A DNA stretch of 30,138 bases from Verrucomicrobiota bacterium. Its GTDB lineage: Bacteria; Verrucomicrobiota; Verrucomicrobiia; Limisphaerales; CANJSG01. Positions 905-21,589 of the stretch are shown piece by piece (position 1 is the stretch's first letter; every line of letters starts with the position of its first letter). The position numbers and the translations under genes were made by a program. A model generated the notes under the pieces. It was not told where the DNA came from and did not search any database. It saw only the letters and a program-made list of their open reading frames with translations. The stretch is from positions 1-30,138 of the forward strand of contig JBBQXJ010000060.1 in NCBI GenBank assembly GCA_038209745.1, read 5' to 3'.

Positions 905-3900
905 TCAAGGCCGCCACACCGGCAGCGAACCAAGCTCACCGGCCGGAATCCAGAGACCGGTCGTGCGGTCGCCTTGAAGGCCTGGCAACCCGAGACCGAG
1001 GCAGTCGATGGCGTCTTCCCCAGGCATGGGCTGCGGAGTCGTTGGTTGCGCCAAGTCCACTAGGTTCACGCCGTTCGAGGTGAGGAACGCCGCGATGTCG
1101 CCTAGAAGCTTCAGTTCACTGAAGACGGCGGGTTCATCCAAGGAACCGAGGCGGCTGAAGGTGCCGGTCGAACCCAGCTTCCAGGTTTCGATCCGGCTCA
1201 GCTCGTTGGTCGGGCCGATGTTCCGTTCGGTGACGACGAGGCCATTCGGGGCGACGGCGACAAGCGGGGCATTCCAAGCGTTGCTCGCGGAGAGAAAGAC
1301 GCTGTCCACGAGATGCGCGGAGAGTCCGTCGTAGGCCAACCCGTGCAGGGTGGCGCCGACCGGAACGCCCGATCCATCGAAGGTGGCTTGGGACGCGGCA
1401 TAGACCATCGCGCCGCCGTGGGAGATCCCTGCGAGCAAGCCGGGAAACGAGATCGGTTCACGGACCACGGGCGCGGCCGGATCCTGGCCGAAGTCGGTCA
1501 CGACCAGCTCGTGCTGGTTCCAGAAGCGGGTCACGGGCACGGCATTGGTGACGACTTCCCTTCGTAGACCCCGGCTGACCACGAGCTCACGGGAGATGTT
1601 GGTCGTGATGACACCGGCATTGTGTTGGGCAACGACGGGCAACTCGCTGACAAGCGTGAAGGAAACAGACTCGCCCATCCCGCCCACGGTCGCGAGATCG
1701 GCGCCCCAGACGAAGAGATCGCCGGAGCCGGTCACGGCCAAGGAATGTTTCCGACCTGCTCCGATGGCGGTGACACCGGTCAAGCCTTGCACGCGGGCCA
1801 TCACCGGCGTGAGCGAAACCGGCTCGCGCCCGATGAACCAGACCTCCCCGTTTTCGGCCAACGCCAAAGTATGATAGGTGCCGCCCGCGATCGAGCGAAT
1901 GGCGGGCAGGCCGGCGATGGGGTGCGGAGCCTGGCCGATCTCCGGAGGGCCGGCACCGAGCTGATAGAAGGCATTGTTGCCCCAGCCCCACACCGTCCCG
2001 TCCTCGGCCAACGCCAACGAATGGGCGCCCCCGGCCGCTACGGCGCGAACCATGACACCCGACGGCAAGGTCACGGGGTTGGGAAACTCCTGAGCACCCC
2101 TCCGTCCCAACTGTCCCGAGTCGTCCCAACCCCATGACCAAATCCGTCCTGCCTCATCCAACGCGAGGCTGTGCAGCAACCCGCCGGAAACAGCCCGGAA
2201 GGCGGTTCCCGGAACGGGCCGCGGTTCCGTCCCGAACTCGCGATTTCCGAGCCCGAGCTGTCCCTGTTCATTGTGGCCCCAGGCCCAGAGCTGACCGTTC
2301 CGATCCAGCGCCAGCGCGTGCCAACCACCGGAGGCGATCGCGGCCATCGGCCCGGGAAAGAGAATCTTGCGCGGAGTCGAATTGTCCGACGGCGGCTGGC
2401 CGGGCAACGGCGGCAGTGGACCATCCCAGGAACCCCAGTTCCAAACGGTGCCGTCGCTCCCCAAGGCAAAGCTCTGCCAGTTCGCGCCGGCCACGGCGAC
2501 CATCGGCGAGGAAAGTGCGACGCGGGTGGGAACAGAGACCACACCGGAGCCCGCGGTTCCCACGGAGCCTCCCGCATTGTCACCCCAGCCGAAGACGTCT
2601 CCCGTATCGTCCAAGACCAAGCTGTGCGACCGACCGCCGGCCAGTGCGGTGCCGGATCGGTGCAAGCGGACGGCGGAAACGGTGATCGGCGCGGGCAGGT
2701 TGGTTTCGGTCACGACCACCTGGGTGAAGACCAGGTTCGTCCACCAGACCTCGTTGGTCATCGTGAACCAAACCTGGTTGGTCTGGACGTAGTAGTTGGT
2801 CGAAGCAATCTCCGAGTGCTGCGTCGTTTGACTGGCGTAGACGAGGCCTTCGGCGGCGAACGCGGCGCTGGTCTCAAGGGCTGAAGCACCAATCGGAGTT
2901 TCAGACTGGAAGCGCGGATGGGTCGCGTCTCTCACATTGACGGCCTCCAGCAGGAAGGGTTGGCCCTGCGGCCGATAGGGTGCGACCAGACCGGGGCGAA
3001 TCCTGGACACTGAATCCACGCCGACCAAATACGGCATCATATACCAAGGCCCCCACCAGGAGCGCTGCTCGCGAACGGACCAGACCAACAGTCCTGGCGT
3101 CGGCCACAGCGGCTCGGCCCCGCTCAGGGATCCTTCGGCTTTGGTCTTCCAAGTGTCGCGGCCGAGTTCCGCCAGATCCGGCAGCGCGGCCGCATCCAGC
3201 ACGACGTGCCGCATGGTGCCGCGATTGGTGGAATTCTCGGGCTGGGTTCCCGCCCAAAGGCGGACTAACCCGAAACCCTCGTTGGATCCCTCTCCTTGGA
3301 GAAGGTGGATCCGGTCACCGGCGACGGTCGCACCGATCACCCTCGGCCCGTCGAGCGCATAGCGCTGCAAGGCGACGCCCGGTTTGGCGGCGGAACTGAC
3401 ATGGACTTCGTTGCCTGCGAATTCCACCAGCCAGTCTCCAACCGGCAGGATGCGGTCGACGGGATAACCCAGCTCCAGTCGGCTCTTGAGCACTGGGGCG
3501 TCGCGGTCGGCGAAATCGATGCCGAGCAGTTCACGGGTCGAGATCGTGAAGAACCGTTCCGCCCGGATCACCGTGCGTCGGGGAATGATCGTCGCGTTGG
3601 TGAAGGCGGCGCGGGCCGTCACGGCGTTGCTGGACAGATCGACCAGCTGGACGGCTTCGACATAGCCGTTCGTCGTCCACGACGAGATCGGCACCAGCAC
3701 GAGACCTTCGTCCGGGAAGACGCCGAAGGCCTTCTCGTTGCCCAGCGCTTCGCTGGTGGACCAGCCGTCACCGAGCACGGCTTTGCTCAGCAGCCCGGGC
3801 TTCGCCGGATCGGCCACGTCGAAGAGCTGCACGGCCACGCGATTGCCGGCGGTATCATCGATCCCGATGGTCAACAGCCGATCCCCGAGCGGCTGGATGT

Positions 3901-14965: not shown

Positions 14966-17692
14966 ATGACCCACCATTCTGACAGCAACCCAAAGAAGGG
15001 CACGCGCACGGGCTCCCCGACCGAACGGGCGCTGGAATGGGTGACGAACATGGTGATCCGGCACCGGGTCTGGTGCATCCGGATCCAGCTCGTGCTCTTC
15101 GCCCTGAGCGTCTGGTTCACGGTGGCCAAGCTGGGGTTCCAGACGAGTCGCGACGATCTCGTCGGCGCGGACAAGCGCTACCACCAGATCTATCTGAACT
15201 TCAAAAAGGAATTCCCCGCCCAGGAAGACATGGTCGTGGTGGTGGAGAGCGAGTCCATTTCCCGCAATCGCCAGTTCGTCGAGCGGCTCGGCGTCCGATT
15301 GGAGAGCGAGACGAACCTGTTCGCGGACGTCTTCTACAAGGGCGACCTCCGCATGATGGGGTCCAAGGCGTTGCTCTTCGCCCCGGAGGAGGATCTGACG
15401 GTGCTGCGGGACAAGCTGCAGGCTTTCCGGCCATTCATCGGCAAGTTCCTCCAGACGTCCAACCTGGTTTCCTTGTTCGAGATGGTGAACCGGCAGTTCC
15501 GCACGGCCACCCGGGAAACCAACGCCCAGAACGACGCGCTCATCGGGGCGCTGCCCGCGTTGGAGAGGATCCTCGTGGGAGCCACCGAAGCGGTGGAGCG
15601 GCACGGCACGCCGCCATCCCCGGGAGTGGACGCGCTCTTCGGCGCCGGCCCGGAGGCGGAGAACGCGTCCTATGTCACCTTCGCCCGCGGCCGGCTCTAC
15701 CTCGTGACCGCCCGTGCCAGCAGCAAGGAGAACGTCATCCCGGCCGTGGAGCGGATGCGCCAGCTCGTGGCGGAAACCCAGGCCGAAGTGACGGGTGTGA
15801 ACGTGGGATTGACCGGCGAATCCGTTTTGGAAGTGGACGAGATGGCCCAGTCCCAGACGGACTCGATCAAGGCGTCGATCCTCTCGTTCATCGGCTGCGG
15901 GCTGATCTTCATCATCGGCTATCGGGAAACCGGCCGCCCGTTGAAAGCGGCGGCATGTCTCCTCGTCGGCCTCGGCTACACGATGGGCTTCACCACGTTG
16001 GTGGTCGGGCATCTGAACATCCTCACCATTGTCTTCGTGCCGATCCTCATCGGCCTGGCGATCGACTTCGGCGTGCATCTGGTGACGCGCTACGAGGAGG
16101 AACTGCGGGCCGGTCGCACCGAGGAGGAGGCGATCCGCCTCGCCGTGGTGAACACGGGCATGGGCGTCTTCACCGGCGCTTTGACCACGGCAACGGCGTT
16201 CCTGGCCATGGGCTTCACCGACTTCAAGGGAGTGCGGGAGATGGGCATCATCTGCGGCGCCGGCATGCTGCTCTCGCTCGTGCCGATGATGACGATGCTC
16301 CCGGCGCTGCTGCTGCGCGGGCGGCAGAACACGATCGACCACGGGCGCCCGCCGATGGATCGACGCGCACGCCTGGAACGCCTGTGGCTTGACCGTCCCT
16401 GGATCACGACCGGCATCACGCTGGCCTTGACCGGCCTCGCGGTCATCGGCGCGCGACGGGTGACCTTCGACTACAACCTGTTGAACATGCAGTCGGATGG
16501 CCTGCCGGCCGTGGTCTATCAAAAGAAGCTCATCCACTCGGCGGACAAGTCCGTCATCTTTGGTGTGGTGGCCGTGGATTCGGTCGAGGAAGCGCGCAAA
16601 CTGGAAGCGCGGTTCAAGCAGCTCCCGACCGTCCGGGATGTGGAGTCGATGTCAGCCTTCCTCGGCGGCAACCAGGAAACCAAGCTGGCGCGGGTCCGGG
16701 AGATCAAGACCCTGGTGGAGGATCTTCGTTTCGCCGCCCCGGACCCGGAGCCCGTCAATACCCAGGACCTGAGCCGCACGCTCTGGTCGTTCAAGGGCTA
16801 TCTGGGACTGGTCGCCCAGGAAGTTGGCGATCAGAAGCCCGAGCTGCTGGCGGAAGTGCAGTCGCTCGTCCGCGCAGTGGAGGATCTCCGGGTTAAGCTC
16901 AACGACAGCAGGACAGCCGACGTCGCGCTGAAGGTCACCGAGCTCCAGACCGCTCTGTTCACCGATCTGCGAGACACCTTCGCCGCTTTGCGGAATCAAA
17001 ACGCAGACGCGCCATTGACCGCCGCAGATTTGCCTCCCTCCCTCAGGAGCCGGTTCATCGGGGTCACCGGCAAACATCTGCTGATGATCTATCCGAAAAA
17101 GGACGTCTGGGAACGGGAGCCGCAGGAGGAGTTTGTGGACGAGCTCCGCACCGTCTATCCGGAAGTGACCGGCACGCCGGTGCAGCTGCTGGAATACACC
17201 TCGCTGCTGAGGAGAAGCTACGAGGACGCGGCCTGGTATGCGCTGGCCGCCATTGCGGTGATGGTGCTGGTCCACTTCCGCTCCATTCCATGCCTGGTAT
17301 TGGCTCTGATCCCGGTTGGAGTCGGGTTTCTCTGGATGGTGGGCCTGATGGGCTGGCGGGGCCTGCATTTCAACCCCGCCAACATCATGACCCTGCCGTT
17401 GGTGGTCGGGATCGGCGTGACCAATGGCATCCATATCCTCAACCGTTACGCGGAAGAGAGAAGTCCGGCCCTCCTCGCCAAGAGCACGGGCAAGGCGGTG
17501 CTGATCTCGGGACTGACCACGATCGTGGGATTCGGGAGCCTGCTGACCGCCGAACATCGCGGGATCGAGAGCCTGGGCTTCGTCATGTCGGTCGGAGTGG
17601 CGACCTGCCTCTTCGTTTCGCTGACGTTTCTGCCGGCGTTGCTCCAGATGTTCCCGTGGTCGGGCCCAAAAAAAACCGACGCCAAGCCATAG
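14966..17692 (+). CDS. MMPL/RND family transporter (HpnN-like)
   Basis: Two membrane repeats with IGLAIDFGVH and VGIGVTNGIH motifs and large periplasmic loops; 908 aa. Confidence 0.88.
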   Translation: MTHHSDSNPKKGTRTGSPTERALEWVTNMVIRHRVWCIRIQLVLFALSVWFTVAKLGFQTSRDDLVGADKRYHQIYLNFKKEFPAQEDMVVVVESESISRNRQFVERLGVRLESETNLFADVFYKGDLRMMGSKALLFAPEEDLTVLRDKLQAFRPFIGKFLQTSNLVSLFEMVNRQFRTATRETNAQNDALIGALPALERILVGATEAVERHGTPPSPGVDALFGAGPEAENASYVTFARGRLYLVTARASSKENVIPAVERMRQLVAETQAEVTGVNVGLTGESVLEVDEMAQSQTDSIKASILSFIGCGLIFIIGYRETGRPLKAAACLLVGLGYTMGFTTLVVGHLNILTIVFVPILIGLAIDFGVHLVTRYEEELRAGRTEEEAIRLAVVNTGMGVFTGALTTATAFLAMGFTDFKGVREMGIICGAGMLLSLVPMMTMLPALLLRGRQNTIDHGRPPMDRRARLERLWLDRPWITTGITLALTGLAVIGARRVTFDYNLLNMQSDGLPAVVYQKKLIHSADKSVIFGVVAVDSVEEARKLEARFKQLPTVRDVESMSAFLGGNQETKLARVREIKTLVEDLRFAAPDPEPVNTQDLSRTLWSFKGYLGLVAQEVGDQKPELLAEVQSLVRAVEDLRVKLNDSRTADVALKVTELQTALFTDLRDTFAALRNQNADAPLTAADLPPSLRSRFIGVTGKHLLMIYPKKDVWEREPQEEFVDELRTVYPEVTGTPVQLLEYTSLLRRSYEDAAWYALAAIAVMVLVHFRSIPCLVLALIPVGVGFLWMVGLMGWRGLHFNPANIMTLPLVVGIGVTNGIHILNRYAEERSPALLAKSTGKAVLISGLTTIVGFGSLLTAEHRGIESLGFVMSVGVATCLFVSLTFLPALLQMFPWSGPKKTDAKP

Positions 17693-17954
17693 ACTTGACG
17701 TCGGTCTGAGGAGGAACCGAGGTAAAAACCTCTTGTTTCGCCGCAAAGCTATTCTGTCCTAAAAGCGGTCGTCAACCTTCGTTGTCTACAAAAATGTGGA
17801 CTTTAGCGCCTCCAAATCCTCTTGCCAGCCAGGGTTATCGTTAACGGCAACCGATGGGCGAGACGCTTTACCCGCCATTATTCCAGCTGACTCAGCGAAG
17901 ATAGGAAGTCATGTCGACCTGGAAACTTGGGATTCCAACGGTCCGGCCGCAGCG

Positions 17955-18971
17955 TCAACTCCGGCCCACTGCCGCGACGAAGGGCTTCAATTCCTCCATG
18001 AGCTTGGCGAAGCCTTCCAAAGACACCTGTTGGGCACCATCGCTCCACGCTTCAGCCGGATTTGGATGCACCTCGATCAGAAGCGCGTCGGCACCCATGG
18101 CGATCGCTCCCTTGCTGAGGGAGATGACGAGATCGCTGCGGCCGGCGCCCTGGCTCGGATCGATCACGATCGGGCAGTGCGATTCCTTCTTGATGATGGG
18201 GATAGTCGACAGATCAAGCGTGTTGCGGGTGTAGGTCTCGAAGGTGCGGATGCCGCGTTCGCAGAACATCAGCCCAGGGTTCTCGTTCGCCAGGACGTAT
18301 TCGCCGGCCAACAGCCATTCCTCGATCTTCATGGAAAGGCCGCGTTTCAAGAGCACGGGCCGACCGGTCTTGGCGGCGGCAATAAGCAACTGGAAGTTCT
18401 GCGCGTTCCGGGCGCCGATCTGGAGGATATCGGCGTAGTCCGCGACCATCGTCGCCTGCTGCTCCGAGAGGAGTTCGGTGATGACGGCGAGGCCGGTTTC
18501 CTTGCGAGCCTTTGCCAGCAGCTTCAGGGCCTTCTCACCGAGACCCTGGAATTCGTAGGGAGAGGTGCGGGGTTTGAAGGCGCCGCCACGGAGGACGGTG
18601 GCCCCAGCCTTCTTTACCGCGTGGGCGGTGGTCAGAAGCTGCTTCTCGCTCTCCACCGAACACGGGCCGGCCATGATCTGGATCTTGTCGCCACCGATGA
18701 CGGCTCCGTTGCCCAGCGTGATGGTGGAATTGGAGGGATGGGCCTCGCGGCTGACGAGCTTGAAGCGCTTCTGCACCGGCATGACCGACTCCACCTGGGG
18801 AAAAGCAGAGAGGGATTCCAGCGTGTGGTTCTTGCGCTCGTCGCCGATGGCACCGATGACGGTGCGGGCGACTCCGCGCATGAGGTGGGGCCGGTAGCCG
18901 AGGCGTCGGATTTCCTTGAGGACGGACAGCTCGGCCTTGCGGTTGGTCTTTGGTTTGAGAACGACGATCAT
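17955..18971 (-). CDS. aroF: 3-deoxy-7-phosphoheptulonate (DAHP) synthase, class I-beta, with N-terminal regulatory domain
   Basis: AGPCSVES, RGGAFKPRTSPYEFQGLG, QIGARN, LLKRG, CERGIRTFE, EVHPNP; starts MIVVLKP at ATG 18971. Confidence 0.96.
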   Translation of the reverse strand: MIVVLKPKTNRKAELSVLKEIRRLGYRPHLMRGVARTVIGAIGDERKNHTLESLSAFPQVESVMPVQKRFKLVSREAHPSNSTITLGNGAVIGGDKIQIMAGPCSVESEKQLLTTAHAVKKAGATVLRGGAFKPRTSPYEFQGLGEKALKLLAKARKETGLAVITELLSEQQATMVADYADILQIGARNAQNFQLLIAAAKTGRPVLLKRGLSMKIEEWLLAGEYVLANENPGLMFCERGIRTFETYTRNTLDLSTIPIIKKESHCPIVIDPSQGAGRSDLVISLSKGAIAMGADALLIEVHPNPAEAWSDGAQQVSLEGFAKLMEELKPFVAAVGRS

Positions 18972-19001
18972 AGGATTTATTCCTGCCCTGGATCTCCACA
19001 C

Positions 19002-19029
19002 AAAAAAACCGCAGGTGGAGTCCTGCGGC
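19002..19029 (-). terminator. Attenuator terminator in the aroF leader
   Basis: CCGCAGG-actcca-CCTGCGG followed by T7, ending 30 nt upstream of the aroF ATG. Confidence 0.85.
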
Positions 19030-19061
19030 ATCGGAGACGGTTTGTGTCGGGGTTCACAAGC

Positions 19062-19136
19062 TCACGAAATGGCGCAGTCGGCCAGGCCAAAAAAGCCCGC
19101 CCAGTACCAGGCGCCAAATCGAAAGCTGCGGTTCAC
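19062..19136 (-). CDS. Aromatic-amino-acid leader peptide MNRSFRFGAWYWAGFFGLADCAIS
   Basis: GTG start and TGA stop. 7 of 24 codons are aromatic (4 Phe, 2 Trp, 1 Tyr). It lies between a promoter and a terminator upstream of the DAHP synthase. Confidence 0.85.
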   Translation of the reverse strand: MNRSFRFGAWYWAGFFGLADCAIS

Positions 19137-19143
19137 AGGCCGA

Positions 19144-19171
19144 AAGCTATCAGCCGATCATGCCGGGTCAA
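19144..19171 (-). promoter_or_regulatory. Sigma70-type promoter of the aroF leader
   Basis: TTGACC-N16-TAGCTT with an extended TGn. The leader GTG follows 7 nt after the -10 box. Confidence 0.7.
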
Positions 19172-19542
19172 GAAACGCTTCCCGCGAGATCCGCTCCCGG
19201 CAGGGCCAGGAAGTCCCCCAGCAACCGTTTCAAAGCGGGTTCGTCGTAGTCGTTCAAATCCCTCAGCGTGAAGACTCCGAGGCAGATCCCGTCCTTGCGA
19301 CGGGCGGCGTGCAGCACGGCGTTCTCATAGACCAGGCGGACCGTCTCGCCCGGGAGCCGTTGCGCCTGGAGCAGGCGGAATATATCGGACAAAGAACTCA
19401 GCGCATGGTCGCAGATGGATTGGGGGAAGGCCGTCGAAAAGCTCTGCGAAAAAGGGGCGCCATCGGCATACCGGAGGCCTCCGGCCAGGACGCCGTGGAT
19501 CATCAGGTTCTGGGAGAACCAAAGATTCAGGGCCGCCTTCAT
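19168..19542 (-). CDS. Hypothetical protein, roadblock/LC7-like
   Basis: 124 aa with an ATGA overlap with the upstream regulator. The helix/strand pattern (GVLAGGLRYADG...VRLVYENAVLHAARRKDGICLGVF) suggests a roadblock/profilin-like fold. Confidence 0.6.
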   Translation of the reverse strand: MKAALNLWFSQNLMIHGVLAGGLRYADGAPFSQSFSTAFPQSICDHALSSLSDIFRLLQAQRLPGETVRLVYENAVLHAARRKDGICLGVFTLRDLNDYDEPALKRLLGDFLALPGADLAGSVS

Positions 19543-20663
19543 TCCATCGACCCCGCAATGGGCGCCGGCGCGTAGACCGTTCGCAGAAACAGCGCGCGAT
19601 CGGCCTCGGCCTGCACCAGGACGCGGGTCCTATGCTCGGTGCTTTCCATCCGCTCGAACAGGCCCACTGGCAGCCCCTGGGCCAACTGCCGCGCCTTCTG
19701 CGACAGCATCTCCATGAAATCGATCCGCCCGTTGCTGTTCATGCACTGCCATTCGTAGAGCACGTCGCCCTGCGTGGAACAGAGGATGAACTCAGCGACC
19801 GTCGGCTTCAGCTCCATCCCTTCCGGGAGTTCCGGAGCCGGCTGCACGCGGAAGAACGCCGTGTTGCCCGTCTCCTCTTCGGCCATTTGCAGGGCGGCCT
19901 GAGTTTCCGCGTCCAGCTCGCCGGATTTGGGAGCGGAAGGGTCGATCGGCACATCCGTCTCCCGTTCGTCCCGCTGCTGCGCCGCCTCCATCAGCAACGA
20001 TTCCCAGCTACCGGAAATCGTCCTTTGGTCCGGCTCGGAAAAGGGTTTGAGGGTGAACTCGCCCCCGGAGAGCGCCAACAGCCGGTTGAAGGCGGGTTCT
20101 CCAAGGAACTCTCCGACATGCGCATGGACCACCTGGCCAACCTCGACGTAGATCTGTCCGCGCACCCCTCCGGTGTTGATCTCCAGAACGCTGGAATTTC
20201 GCGCCAGACATTCCATCTGCAATACATCGGCCAACCCCACCTTCCGCAGCACGCCCCGAAATCCTTCCTCCGGCTGGAACTTCGCCAGTTCGGCGAGCGT
20301 GGCGAAGATGCTTTGCCATCCTCCGGGATCGCGCGGCTTTTCCAGGAAAAGCTCCGCACCGCTGTCGAGGCACGTATCGCGGTAGGCTCCGGTATAGTCG
20401 CCGGTCAGGACGACCTTCAGCAGATCGGGGAACTTCCGGCAGAGAAGCCGCAGGAACTGGAGCCCGTCGACGACGGGCATGTGGATGTCGATCACCAGGA
20501 GATCGACCGACTGCCCCTGCATCGCGGCGAGGGCGGCGCCGGAACTTTGCGCCGTCGATACCTGCCAGGATGCGCCCACAAACTGCTCCGCCAGCTCGGG
20601 CAGCAGCCGGAGAAAGTCGGGATCGTCGTCGACGAACAAAACGCGTGTCTTTCGGCCACCCAT
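19539..20663 (-). CDS. Response regulator: REC + DUF4388 (PatA_N-like) + C-terminal roadblock-like domain
   Basis: FVDDD, VIDIHMP, LTG and EKP receiver motifs; FRGVLRKVGLADVLQM...LLMEAAQQRDE DUF4388 pattern. Confidence 0.85.
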   Translation of the reverse strand: MGGRKTRVLFVDDDPDFLRLLPELAEQFVGASWQVSTAQSSGAALAAMQGQSVDLLVIDIHMPVVDGLQFLRLLCRKFPDLLKVVLTGDYTGAYRDTCLDSGAELFLEKPRDPGGWQSIFATLAELAKFQPEEGFRGVLRKVGLADVLQMECLARNSSVLEINTGGVRGQIYVEVGQVVHAHVGEFLGEPAFNRLLALSGGEFTLKPFSEPDQRTISGSWESLLMEAAQQRDERETDVPIDPSAPKSGELDAETQAALQMAEEETGNTAFFRVQPAPELPEGMELKPTVAEFILCSTQGDVLYEWQCMNSNGRIDFMEMLSQKARQLAQGLPVGLFERMESTEHRTRVLVQAEADRALFLRTVYAPAPIAGSME

Positions 20664-20785
20664 ATTTCGCAGCAACTGTGCAGCAAGCTCCAGACCCGGC
20701 AAAGAAAATGATCGGCTCGGATTCCCCGGACCGGCGTCTCCTTTTCGCGTTTCTCCCCGACGCGCGTTCGCTAGGGTCCCGATCG

Positions 20786-21589
20786 ATGATTCATTTGACC
20801 GCCGTCGTTCATCCCGGGGCCCGGATCGATCCCACCGCCGAGATCGGCCCCTACGCCGTCGTCGATGGCGATGTCACGCTCGGTGCTGGCTGCAGGGTCG
20901 GGCCGGGAGCCTATTTGACCGGACTCACAACCGTCGGCCAAGGGAACGTCTTCCACGCGGGTTGCGTGATCGGCGACTCGCCCCAGGACCTGAAGTATCG
21001 CGGCGAGCCGACTCGGCTTCGCATCGGGGACAAAAACGTCTTCCGCGAACACGTCACCGTTCACCGTTCCAACAAGCTGGACGAGGACACGGTGATCGGC
21101 TCGAACAACCTGCTGATGGCCGGTAGCCACGTGGGCCACAACTCCGTGATTGGAAACCATGTCATCCTCGCCAACGGCGCCCTCCTCGGCGGCCACGTCA
21201 CAGTGGCGGATCGGGTCTTCATCTCGGGCACCTGCATGCTCCACCAATTCGTCCGGGTCGGGACGTTGGCGCTGATGCAGGGCGGCTCCGGCATCAGCAA
21301 GGATCTGCCGCCCTTCTGCGTCGCCCGCGGCAACAACCGCATCGCCGGGCTGAACATCGTCGGCCTCCGCCGCGCTGGTTTCACCGCCCCGCAGAGGCTG
21401 GCTCTGAAACAAGCCTACCACCGGCTTTTCCGCTCGGGACTGCGGATGAACGAGGCCATCGCGAGAGCTCGGGAGGAATTTGGAACCGACGCCGCAGTTG
21501 CGACGCTTGTCGATTTTATCGCCGACTCAATCCGCGGCGTCTGCGCCGACACCGGAAAGCTGCGAACCGTCGCGACAGATCCCGAATAA
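20786..21589 (+). CDS. lpxA: Acyl-ACP--UDP-N-acetylglucosamine O-acyltransferase
   Basis: Hexapeptide repeats, IGDSPQDLKY, FREHVTVHR, SHVGHN, LGGHV, HQF, GLNIVGLRRAGF. Confidence 0.93.
   Translation: MIHLTAVVHPGARIDPTAEIGPYAVVDGDVTLGAGCRVGPGAYLTGLTTVGQGNVFHAGCVIGDSPQDLKYRGEPTRLRIGDKNVFREHVTVHRSNKLDEDTVIGSNNLLMAGSHVGHNSVIGNHVILANGALLGGHVTVADRVFISGTCMLHQFVRVGTLALMQGGSGISKDLPPFCVARGNNRIAGLNIVGLRRAGFTAPQRLALKQAYHRLFRSGLRMNEAIARAREEFGTDAAVATLVDFIADSIRGVCADTGKLRTVATDPE

Follow-up and report, generated by a model that had tools for sequence, protein, structure and literature searches.

We describe here a leader element upstream of aroF, the gene for 3-deoxy-D-arabino-heptulosonate 7-phosphate (DAHP) synthase, in a soil/freshwater lineage of the Verrucomicrobiota (order Limisphaerales/Pedosphaerales). 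The stretch of DNA that was analysed, called the window in what follows, consists of 30,138 nt of contig JBBQXJ010000060.1 (assembly GCA_038209745.1). All coordinates are window positions, and both the leader element and the DAHP synthase gene lie on the minus strand. We consider it very probable that the element is a ribosome-mediated (leader-peptide) transcription attenuator acting on the one DAHP synthase gene that was found in this genome. A short open reading frame (ORF) rich in codons for aromatic amino acids follows directly on a promoter-like sequence, an intrinsic terminator stands between this ORF and the gene, and a segment near the end of the ORF is a copy of one terminator arm. 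The parts of the element and the gene that it precedes are as follows.

19171-19166, minus strand: -35 hexamer TTGACC, read from the sequence; it overlaps the TGA stop codon of an upstream ORF of 124 amino acids.
19149-19144, minus strand: -10 hexamer TAGCTT, read from the sequence, after a 16-nt spacer from the -35 hexamer.
19136-19062, minus strand: leader ORF MNRSFRFGAWYWAGFFGLADCAIS, 24 codons and a stop codon (GTG start codon at 19136, TGA stop codon at 19064-19062).
19055..19130, minus strand: long imperfect hairpin (the 1:2 state) that encloses most of the ORF and is found in the minimum-energy fold; its 5' arm is CGCAGCUUUCGAUUUGGCGC.
19069..19077, minus strand: region 2, the putative antiterminator box CUGCGCCAU; the family consensus, (A)CCUGCG, is a copy of the terminator 3' arm.
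19023..19031, minus strand: region 3, AUGCCGCAG, which is the partner of the box and doubles as the terminator 5' arm.
19002..19029, minus strand: intrinsic terminator with the stem GCCGCAGG/CCUGCGG(U), the loop ACUCCA, and then seven U, from the terminator scan and the fold.
17955..18971, minus strand: type I-beta DAHP synthase gene (338 amino acids), with its ATG at 18971, about 30 nt past the U-tract.

An earlier note on this DNA, made from the letters alone, had proposed much of this anatomy, and its individual observations have held up. The promoter TTGACC-N16-TAGCTT is present, the GTG lies 7 nt downstream of the -10 box with no Shine-Dalgarno (SD)-like motif ahead of it, and reading the minus strand gives the 24-codon ORF with its Phe, Trp, and Tyr codons. 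Seven of these 24 codons are aromatic (four Phe, two Trp, and one Tyr), at F5, F7, W10-Y11-W12, and F15-F16. All four Phe codons are TTT, as the note remarked, against a general preference for TTC: TTT makes up 20% of the Phe codons in the long ORFs of the genome and one of the nine in the DAHP synthase gene. The GC hairpin with its seven T is independently listed by the terminator scan at 19029-19002 and is followed by aroF, whose product matches Pfam PF00793 (DAHP_synth_1) and an N-terminal ferredoxin-like domain (PF18152). The spacing of about 30 nt between the U-tract and the aroF ATG leaves no room for a separate promoter, and aroF must therefore be read through the terminator.

The comparison that the note had set beforehand, a search of relatives for a conserved F/W/Y-rich short ORF with alternative helices before aroF, was positive across the order. 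DAHP synthase orthologues are present in 31 of 41 related genomes (the window's own genome counted), and 30 loci from 30 genomes were retrieved, 28 of them with enough upstream sequence to read. An aromatic-rich short ORF lies upstream of the DAHP synthase gene in 26 of these 28; the other two (L017 and L021) have nothing comparable. Nearly all of the 26 also have the promoter TTGAC-N17-TAnnnT with a start codon a few nucleotides past the -10 box, and most have a CCGCAGG...CCUGCGG hairpin with a U-run downstream of the ORF. Four (L009, L010, L016, and L029) have no clear U-tract terminator; L016 and L029 keep the CCGCAGG/CCUGCGG hairpin with no U-run after it, and there the stop signal may have lost its function or may operate in another way. 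Nearly all of 80 further loci, taken from Verrucomicrobiota, Limisphaerales, and Pedosphaera records of metagenome-assembled genomes, show the same arrangement, and the element is absent from three (L084, L098, and L107). A covariance model, R1, built from 29 sequences, matches 88 of 95 loci and 87 of 151 genomes sampled from the order, with exactly one match in each of all but two of the 87, and in the loci examined the match lies directly upstream of a type I-beta DAHP synthase gene. This DAHP synthase orthologue is itself missing from several of the R1-negative genomes of the order. In 150 genomes from the rest of the phylum, R1 gave only seven weak matches (E at least 6.7e-5), none adjoining a DAHP synthase gene, and the idea of an R1 family elsewhere in the phylum was dropped.

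The ORF shows a coding signature. The start column of the alignment holds ATG (50), GTG (34), or TTG (1) in 85 of 87 distinct copies, and the two exceptions are alignment offsets. The 85 frames are 21 to 32 codons long, and F/W/Y account for 560 of their 2254 codons (24.8%; 297 F, 150 Y, and 113 W) in a count whose start codon is defined only by the R1 alignment, R1 itself being built partly from ORF sequence. The corresponding value for the long ORFs of the genome, a set that includes some shadow frames, is 5.8%. All three aromatic residues occur in 74 of the 85 frames, and Trp, the rarest amino acid, makes up 5% of the leader codons. Among ORFs chosen by a score that rewarded aromatic content, the mean number of aromatic codons is 6.6 in frame, compared with 2.0 and 2.2 in the other two frames, and the reading frame is the richest of the three in 79 of 84 copies. 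Family leaders carry three to nine aromatic codons, Trp included, and 242 of their 289 Phe codons are TTT. In 59 of 85 copies, the last nucleotide of the stop codon lies exactly 5 nt past the 3' arm of the outer helix described below. Within the whole genome, 59 short ORFs begin 5 to 11 nt past a promoter-like site, and the window leader has the highest aromatic count of them all (seven, with the next at six and four); five of the 59 are followed by a terminator, and of these only the window leader is highly aromatic (seven, the other four having one to three).

At the RNA level, the 146-nt leader of the window folds at -64.7 kcal/mol, compared with -47.4 +/- 3.9 kcal/mol for 200 shuffled versions, none of which was as good (z = -4.49). 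In helix 1:2 (19121-19111 with 19075-19065), which belongs to the minimum-energy fold, 9 of 11 positions pair, and in helix 2:3 (19077-19069 with 19031-19023) 8 of 9 do; both had been drawn in the earlier note, the second with the single mismatch that we also find. The apical hairpin of the 1:2 structure lies inside the aromatic cluster, and the 3' arm carries the antiterminator box and finishes just after the stop codon. The calculated energies, -38.8 kcal/mol for 1:2 (hairpin folded alone), -17.0 kcal/mol for 2:3, and -14.5 kcal/mol for the 3:4 terminator, fall in an order that fits the attenuation model. Individual folds of the relatives share the architecture of one long hairpin enclosing the ORF, followed by the terminator. 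In this shared architecture, GCAGC near codons 3 to 5 and GCUGC at the stop codon form an outer helix, the CCUGCG box takes part in an inner helix, and the apical hairpin again lies within the aromatic cluster. In free RNA, the CCUGCG box near the end of the ORF is sequestered in the long hairpin.

The alignment to R1 adds covariation to this picture. The outer helix has 87% of its cells paired, with both-sided changes in six of six pairs; the inner helix has 76% paired, with both-sided changes in three of four; and the terminator has 99.3% paired, with both-sided changes in four of nine. The antiterminator, formed by the box and the terminator 5' arm, pairs in 86.1% of cells, compared with 34 to 46% when the partner is slid by one to three columns, and its pairs were not included in the model to which the alignment was fitted. 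At one of its pairs, 34 copies have AU, 12 have GC, and 11 have GU, and matching variants of box and terminator arm occur in L012 (CUCGCGG opposite CCGCGGG) and L020 (AUCGCG opposite CGCGGU). The CGCAGG of the terminator stem is found in 74 of 84 distinct copies, and the stem is nearly invariant across dozens of families, the pattern one would look for if one arm had two pairing partners. RNAalifold run on a plain MAFFT alignment of 27 sequences recovered the terminator only, and on a 20-sequence subset it recovered the terminator and the outer helix; the inner helices change register between lineages. Taken with the 87 of 151 genomes that carry the family and the 24.8% of aromatic codons, the pairing of the antiterminator supports the attenuator interpretation put forward in the earlier note.

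In the mechanism that we propose, transcription would start on the GTG at 19136 or a few nucleotides from it, and a ribosome would translate the 24-codon leader while RNA polymerase advances. With Phe-, Trp-, and Tyr-tRNAs charged, the ribosome would reach the stop codon and cover the CUGCGCC box, and upon its release the box would return to the 1:2 hairpin, which is very stable. The CCGCAGG/CCUGCGG hairpin with its U7 would then form, and transcription would halt about 30 nt short of the aroF start codon. If any of these tRNAs is scarce, the ribosome would stall in the cluster F5, F7, W10-Y11-W12, F15-F16, melt the 5' arm of 1:2, and leave the box exposed. The exposed box could pair with the terminator 5' arm as the 2:3 antiterminator, and the polymerase would read into the DAHP synthase gene. 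In the modelled structures, the antiterminator would be mutually exclusive with the terminator, and the box could be masked either by the 1:2 hairpin or by a ribosome at the end of the ORF. What the analysis shows is the anatomy of the sequence, how it is conserved, and the enrichment of aromatic codons in one frame; the transcription start, the translation of the leader, and its response to aromatic starvation are what we infer from these features.

We modelled the effect of the ribosome position by folding only the RNA downstream of the ribosome, with the leading edge 13 nt past the A-site codon and the transcript cut just ahead of the terminator 3' arm. The model assumes equilibrium folding and predicts that the terminator 5' arm is sequestered with the ribosome at codons 1 to about 17 to 21 and free at later codons; with the ribosome at the stop codon, it predicts a free arm in 74 of 78 copies. 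Aromatic codons fall in the antitermination-competent stretch in 472 of 513 cases (92%), compared with 975 of 1484 (66%) for other codons, a difference that partly restates the position of the aromatic codons 5' of the box, as the model treats almost every early codon as competent. Typically, the last cluster of aromatic codons stops a few codons short of the point where competence ends. The first occlusion models, in which helices closed around the ribosome, were discarded as physically doubtful, and the folding of downstream RNA was used instead; the discarded models gave a terminator probability of 0.01 to 0.08 only with the A site at W10-Y11-W12.

Several results count against the attenuator as drawn here. 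The restatement just mentioned is one of them. Without a ribosome, only 22 of 78 copies have a free terminator arm in the model, and therefore termination in the absence of translation is not reproduced for most of them. For the window copy, the probability that the arm is sequestered is 0.38 without a ribosome and 0.36 with the ribosome at the stop codon, about 0.6 to 0.8 at codons 1 to 21, and about 0.4 only at codons 22 to 24, so the downstream-only model is nearly uninformative for this copy. When alignment columns are shuffled, 84.7% of cells already pair, against the 86.1% observed for the antiterminator. Its support is mostly conservation with modest covariation, and most pairs of the antiterminator and the terminator are simply conserved. 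The 2:3 complementarity of the window is not beyond that of mononucleotide shuffles (p = 0.66), and the complementarity of box to arm beats shuffles (p <= 0.05) in only 5 of 25 single sequences, a result on which the per-sequence duplex energy of box and terminator arm was abandoned as a test. The case for the putative antiterminator lies in positional conservation and not in single-sequence energetics. The ORFs of the frame comparison and of the first surveys were chosen for aromatic content; the R1-aligned count removes that selection bias, but R1 is partly derived from ORF sequence. A generic sigma-70 promoter scan listed no minus-strand site within 17500-21000 and likewise missed the leader's own promoter, because TAGCTT agrees with TATAAT at only three of six positions. 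The points of this kind that concern the start of translation and the number of amino acids sensed are taken up below.

Other explanations of the same element have to be weighed. The RNA might itself be the direct sensor of a protein or metabolite, in the manner of a riboswitch or protein-mediated attenuator, with the short ORF incidental. A fold this far above shuffles (z = -4.49) would suit such a role, as would the conservation at the nucleotide level, across many families, of the blocks CGAUUUAGC, CCUGCG, and the terminator stem, and a C-terminal peptide motif, N-L-R-x-G-L-R, that is evidently dictated by the RNA helices. We nevertheless regard direct sensing as very improbable, as it leaves unexplained why a start codon stands at one aligned column in 85 of 87 copies, right after the promoter, why aromatic codons are in threefold excess in one frame only, and why, in 59 of 85, the distance from the outer helix to the stop codon is constant. 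The inside of the hairpin, moreover, differs between copies in length and pairing register, unlike a ligand pocket, and no Rfam family matches. It could also be argued that the hairpin with its U7 is merely the terminator of the upstream gene and that the aromatic ORF is a chance frame or encodes an independent small protein. The upstream ORF (124 amino acids, 19168-19542, minus strand, no Pfam match) ends at 19168, only about 140 nt before the terminator, and short open frames are not rare, as the 59 promoter-adjacent ones in this genome illustrate. This we consider extremely unlikely. A homologue of the 124-amino-acid gene is found in only 1 of 29 other loci of the 30-locus set (L002), and in L031 of the 80-locus set, whose leader is the same as that of L002, whereas the leader accompanies the DAHP synthase gene across the order and thus belongs to aroF. 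The lack of promoter room between the U-tract and the aroF ATG speaks against this explanation as well, as does a stem that is nearly invariant across families, which is atypical of ordinary terminators and expected if one arm has two partners. The peptide is poorly conserved beyond its aromatic richness, which does not fit an independent small protein.

A closer competitor accepts the leader-peptide attenuator and doubts that it is leaderless and that it has three inputs: transcription would start further upstream, or translation would initiate internally and independently of an SD sequence, and only one aromatic amino acid, for example, Phe, would matter. We think this rather unlikely. The promoter statistics come from 84 distinct upstream regions that pass the promoter pattern, in all of which TTGAC lies at a fixed distance before the start codon. 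The spacer between the -35 and -10 hexamers is 16 nt in 61 of them, 17 nt in 20, and 18 nt in 3, and the TAnnnT-type -10 hexamer is conserved. In TTGAC-N17-TAnnnT, the -10 hexamer ends 5 to 11 nt before the leader start codon in 84 of 84 (6 nt in 25, 7 nt in 24, 8 nt in 12, and 9 nt in 16), and the transcript is therefore predicted to begin at or within about 4 nt of the start codon. From this spacing, the leader transcript is probably leaderless or nearly so. The earlier note's observation that no SD precedes the GTG extends to the family, with SD-like 4-mers (-16 to -4) in only 2 of 84 leader ORFs. The DAHP synthase genes themselves, however, seldom have such motifs (9 of 84), so a missing SD is by itself no argument for a leaderless start; these counts suggest that SD-independent initiation is usual in this order. 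By eye, and uncounted, the sequence before the DAHP synthase start codons is A-rich in the loci read. The leader start is GTG in 37 of the 84 copies of the promoter-pattern set, and leaderless initiation on GTG is inefficient in Escherichia coli, which also weighs against a leaderless start. Long ORFs starting 6 to 9 nt past strict promoter-like sites were too few genome-wide (only about 40 sites) to show a peak. Passages of a survey describe some Verrucomicrobia as SD-scarce (PMC10783764), and in such organisms initiation without an SD needs no 5'-terminal start codon.

As to the number of inputs, Phe is the commonest aromatic residue of the leaders (297 F, compared with 150 Y and 113 W), the same-genus leader L010 has six Phe and neither Trp nor Tyr, and for the aroR leader of Corynebacterium glutamicum, which has Phe-Tyr-Phe, the available passages report a response to Phe limitation, the only effective one, and no Tyr effect (PMC11802643, PMC4046766). 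A three-input response therefore cannot be assumed. On the other side, 74 of 85 leader ORFs contain Phe, Trp, and Tyr, which suggests that three tRNAs are integrated, and a residue as rare as Trp reaches 5% of the leader codons. We hold tentatively, with confidence slightly below even, to the stronger claim that a single leaderless or nearly leaderless leader senses the charging of Phe-, Tyr-, and Trp-tRNA and controls the only DAHP synthase of an SD-scarce lineage, with a duplicated switch design, in an order-wide family that has unrelated analogues (L123, L128, and L146, described below). In this design, regions 1 and 3 would share GCAG-type arms, and two CUGCG boxes, regions 2 and 2', would both be able to trap the terminator 5' arm.

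The gene at 17955..18971 is the sole DAHP synthase found in this genome, which is 92% complete, and no type II DAHP synthase was found in it. A second hit of the orthologue search, a protein of 274 amino acids, has only 33% identity and is presumably the related 3-deoxy-D-manno-octulosonate 8-phosphate synthase. With a single DAHP synthase, one attenuator would gate the whole aromatic pathway. The ferredoxin-like domain of the enzyme is reportedly a Tyr/Phe allosteric module, as known from work on the Thermotoga enzyme, and feedback inhibition and attenuation may therefore act together on DAHP synthase. About 250 nt past the stop codon of the gene lies a 16-bp hairpin with a U-run (17673-17707, minus strand), which partly overlaps the 3' end of a convergent plus-strand ORF of 908 amino acids (14966-17692). 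This hairpin is probably the terminator of the DAHP synthase gene and may also serve the convergent gene; with a terminator of its own, the DAHP synthase transcription unit looks monocistronic. On the other side of the leader, a response-regulator receiver and DUF4388 protein of 387 amino acids (19539-20702, minus strand) overlaps the start of the 124-amino-acid ORF by 4 nt. In a brief look at pheA and the two genes for chorismate-binding enzymes of this genome, no comparable leader was seen before any of them; pheA overlaps an upstream ORF, and one of the chorismate-binding genes has a short intergenic region without an aromatic ORF.

Related designs were noted elsewhere. In the same genome, contig C128 (genome G000, about 2100-2265, plus strand, corresponding to L113:101-266) carries TTGACC-N17-TACCTT and, 8 nt later, an ATG that opens a 23-codon ORF, MIRLKAIEVRALVVPGYDADGPC, in which Ile, Leu, and Val together account for seven residues. 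Behind it stands a strong terminator, the leader as a whole has a folding energy of -53 kcal/mol (z = -5.1), and it lies just upstream of a gene for a thiamine pyrophosphate (TPP) enzyme of the acetolactate synthase type; from its sequence, this is a probable second near-leaderless attenuator. The L010 leader, MFSGPELFRATRFRVSFFRPGFRCVRRR, comes from the same-genus genome G001 and is seen also as L055. The L010 terminator is different and weaker, R1 gives no match in L010 or in the G001 genome, and judging by the residues of its leader, this lineage may have switched to Phe-only sensing. In three loci from other Verrucomicrobiota families (L123, L128, and L146), with DAHP synthase orthologues of 48 to 56% identity, the leaders are unrelated in sequence and analogous in design, for example, MSAAGQWFRYFEGFFAASGPEVRRT and MSGKIYNSFYFYFGYRFYFRNGARCCMVGC, each with a strong terminator; the other 26 loci examined showed no analogous aromatic leader. 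These sequences suggest that aromatic attenuators elsewhere in the phylum are convergent or highly diverged. L131 and L132 have Phe-rich hydrophobic short ORFs, MAYFFILSLAFFSLFCHCIM and MFSFIGIFFCSFACFFPLYCHCIVM, about 160 to 180 nt upstream of the DAHP synthase gene, and no terminator was found there by the rule applied.

The earlier note knew of no description in this lineage, and the searches made here gave none either. A full-text literature search for Verrucomicrobia with leader peptide, attenuator, or leaderless found nothing relevant, and one for aroF and aromatic leader peptides found only cases from other phyla (C. glutamicum, Acholeplasma, and Streptomyces). A term search of Naville and Gautheret 2010 (PMC2965389) returned no mention of aro genes or Verrucomicrobia. 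Rfam release 15 has no match in the window at gathering thresholds, and at permissive thresholds it gives only three chance-level hits to unrelated families (E of 2 to 9); Rfam has no family for the aroF leader element. For other phyla, publications already describe DAHP synthase under leader-peptide control as well as leader peptides that are leaderless, and the aroF leader is a known kind of device that has not been catalogued for Verrucomicrobiota.

Classical enterobacterial leader-peptide attenuators are trpL and pheL, with the Rfam families Trp_leader and Phe_leader, and they are translated from an SD-containing leader, whereas the Verrucomicrobiota leader appears to start at the 5' end of the transcript. 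Here region 2 lies inside the ORF and not past the stop codon. Each of the classical leaders responds to a single amino acid and regulates a terminal branch; the Verrucomicrobiota leader has codons for three amino acids and stands at the common first step. The attenuator closest in function, the aroR leader peptide with the aroF attenuator of C. glutamicum, was reportedly described by Neshat et al. in 2014. It resembles the present element in that a DAHP synthase gene is preceded by a short ORF containing aromatic codons, and in aroR ribosome stalling raises transcription, according to the pertinent review passages (PMC11802643). It belongs to a different phylum and is presumably unrelated in sequence; the likeness, compared by description, is functional only. 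The leaders of the Verrucomicrobiota include Trp, and the review passages name no Trp codons in aroR (PMC11802643); they also have a strongly conserved terminator and a box that duplicates a terminator arm. With trpL and pheL, in turn, the element shares regulatory codons in a short ORF, exclusive 1:2, 2:3, and 3:4 helices, and an intrinsic terminator before a biosynthetic gene (for the mechanism, see the passages in PMC11802643 and PMC8079986). The uORFC-13-1 motif upstream of aroF in Acholeplasma, predicted bioinformatically (Brewer et al. 2021, PMC8632094), is similar in having, as far as its published description was available, an upstream ORF with a run of Phe codons immediately before an intrinsic terminator and a DAHP synthase gene. 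It is found in Mollicutes, has a ribosome-binding site, and according to the same parts of that source signals Phe only (PMC8632094), whereas the Verrucomicrobiota family carries Trp and Tyr as well as Phe and lacks an SD-like motif. In Actinobacteria, leaderless leader peptides are known from trpL1, leuL, and ilvL of Streptomyces lividans, where, in the sections that treat them, the ORF is at the start of the transcript with no 5' untranslated region, and hairpins and a U-stretch lie downstream (PMC8079986). The Streptomyces starts were mapped by RNA-seq, and none of the leaders listed in those sections controls DAHP synthase (PMC8079986); the leaderless start in Verrucomicrobiota is predicted from promoter spacing only.

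No principle is changed by these results, as the mechanism, and its application to DAHP synthase, were already known from Corynebacterium. They extend leader-peptide attenuation to the Verrucomicrobiota and give annotators an order-wide family of an RNA and a small ORF (model R1, 87 of 151 genomes). As a compact natural element, the aroF leader may monitor Phe, Trp, and Tyr together at the shikimate pathway's committed step, and translation that is leaderless or independent of an SD sequence could be tested on it in a phylum that has been little studied. If the three-input reading and the unrelated analogues are borne out, they would imply repeated convergent invention of whole-pathway attenuation outside the textbook leader-peptide phyla.

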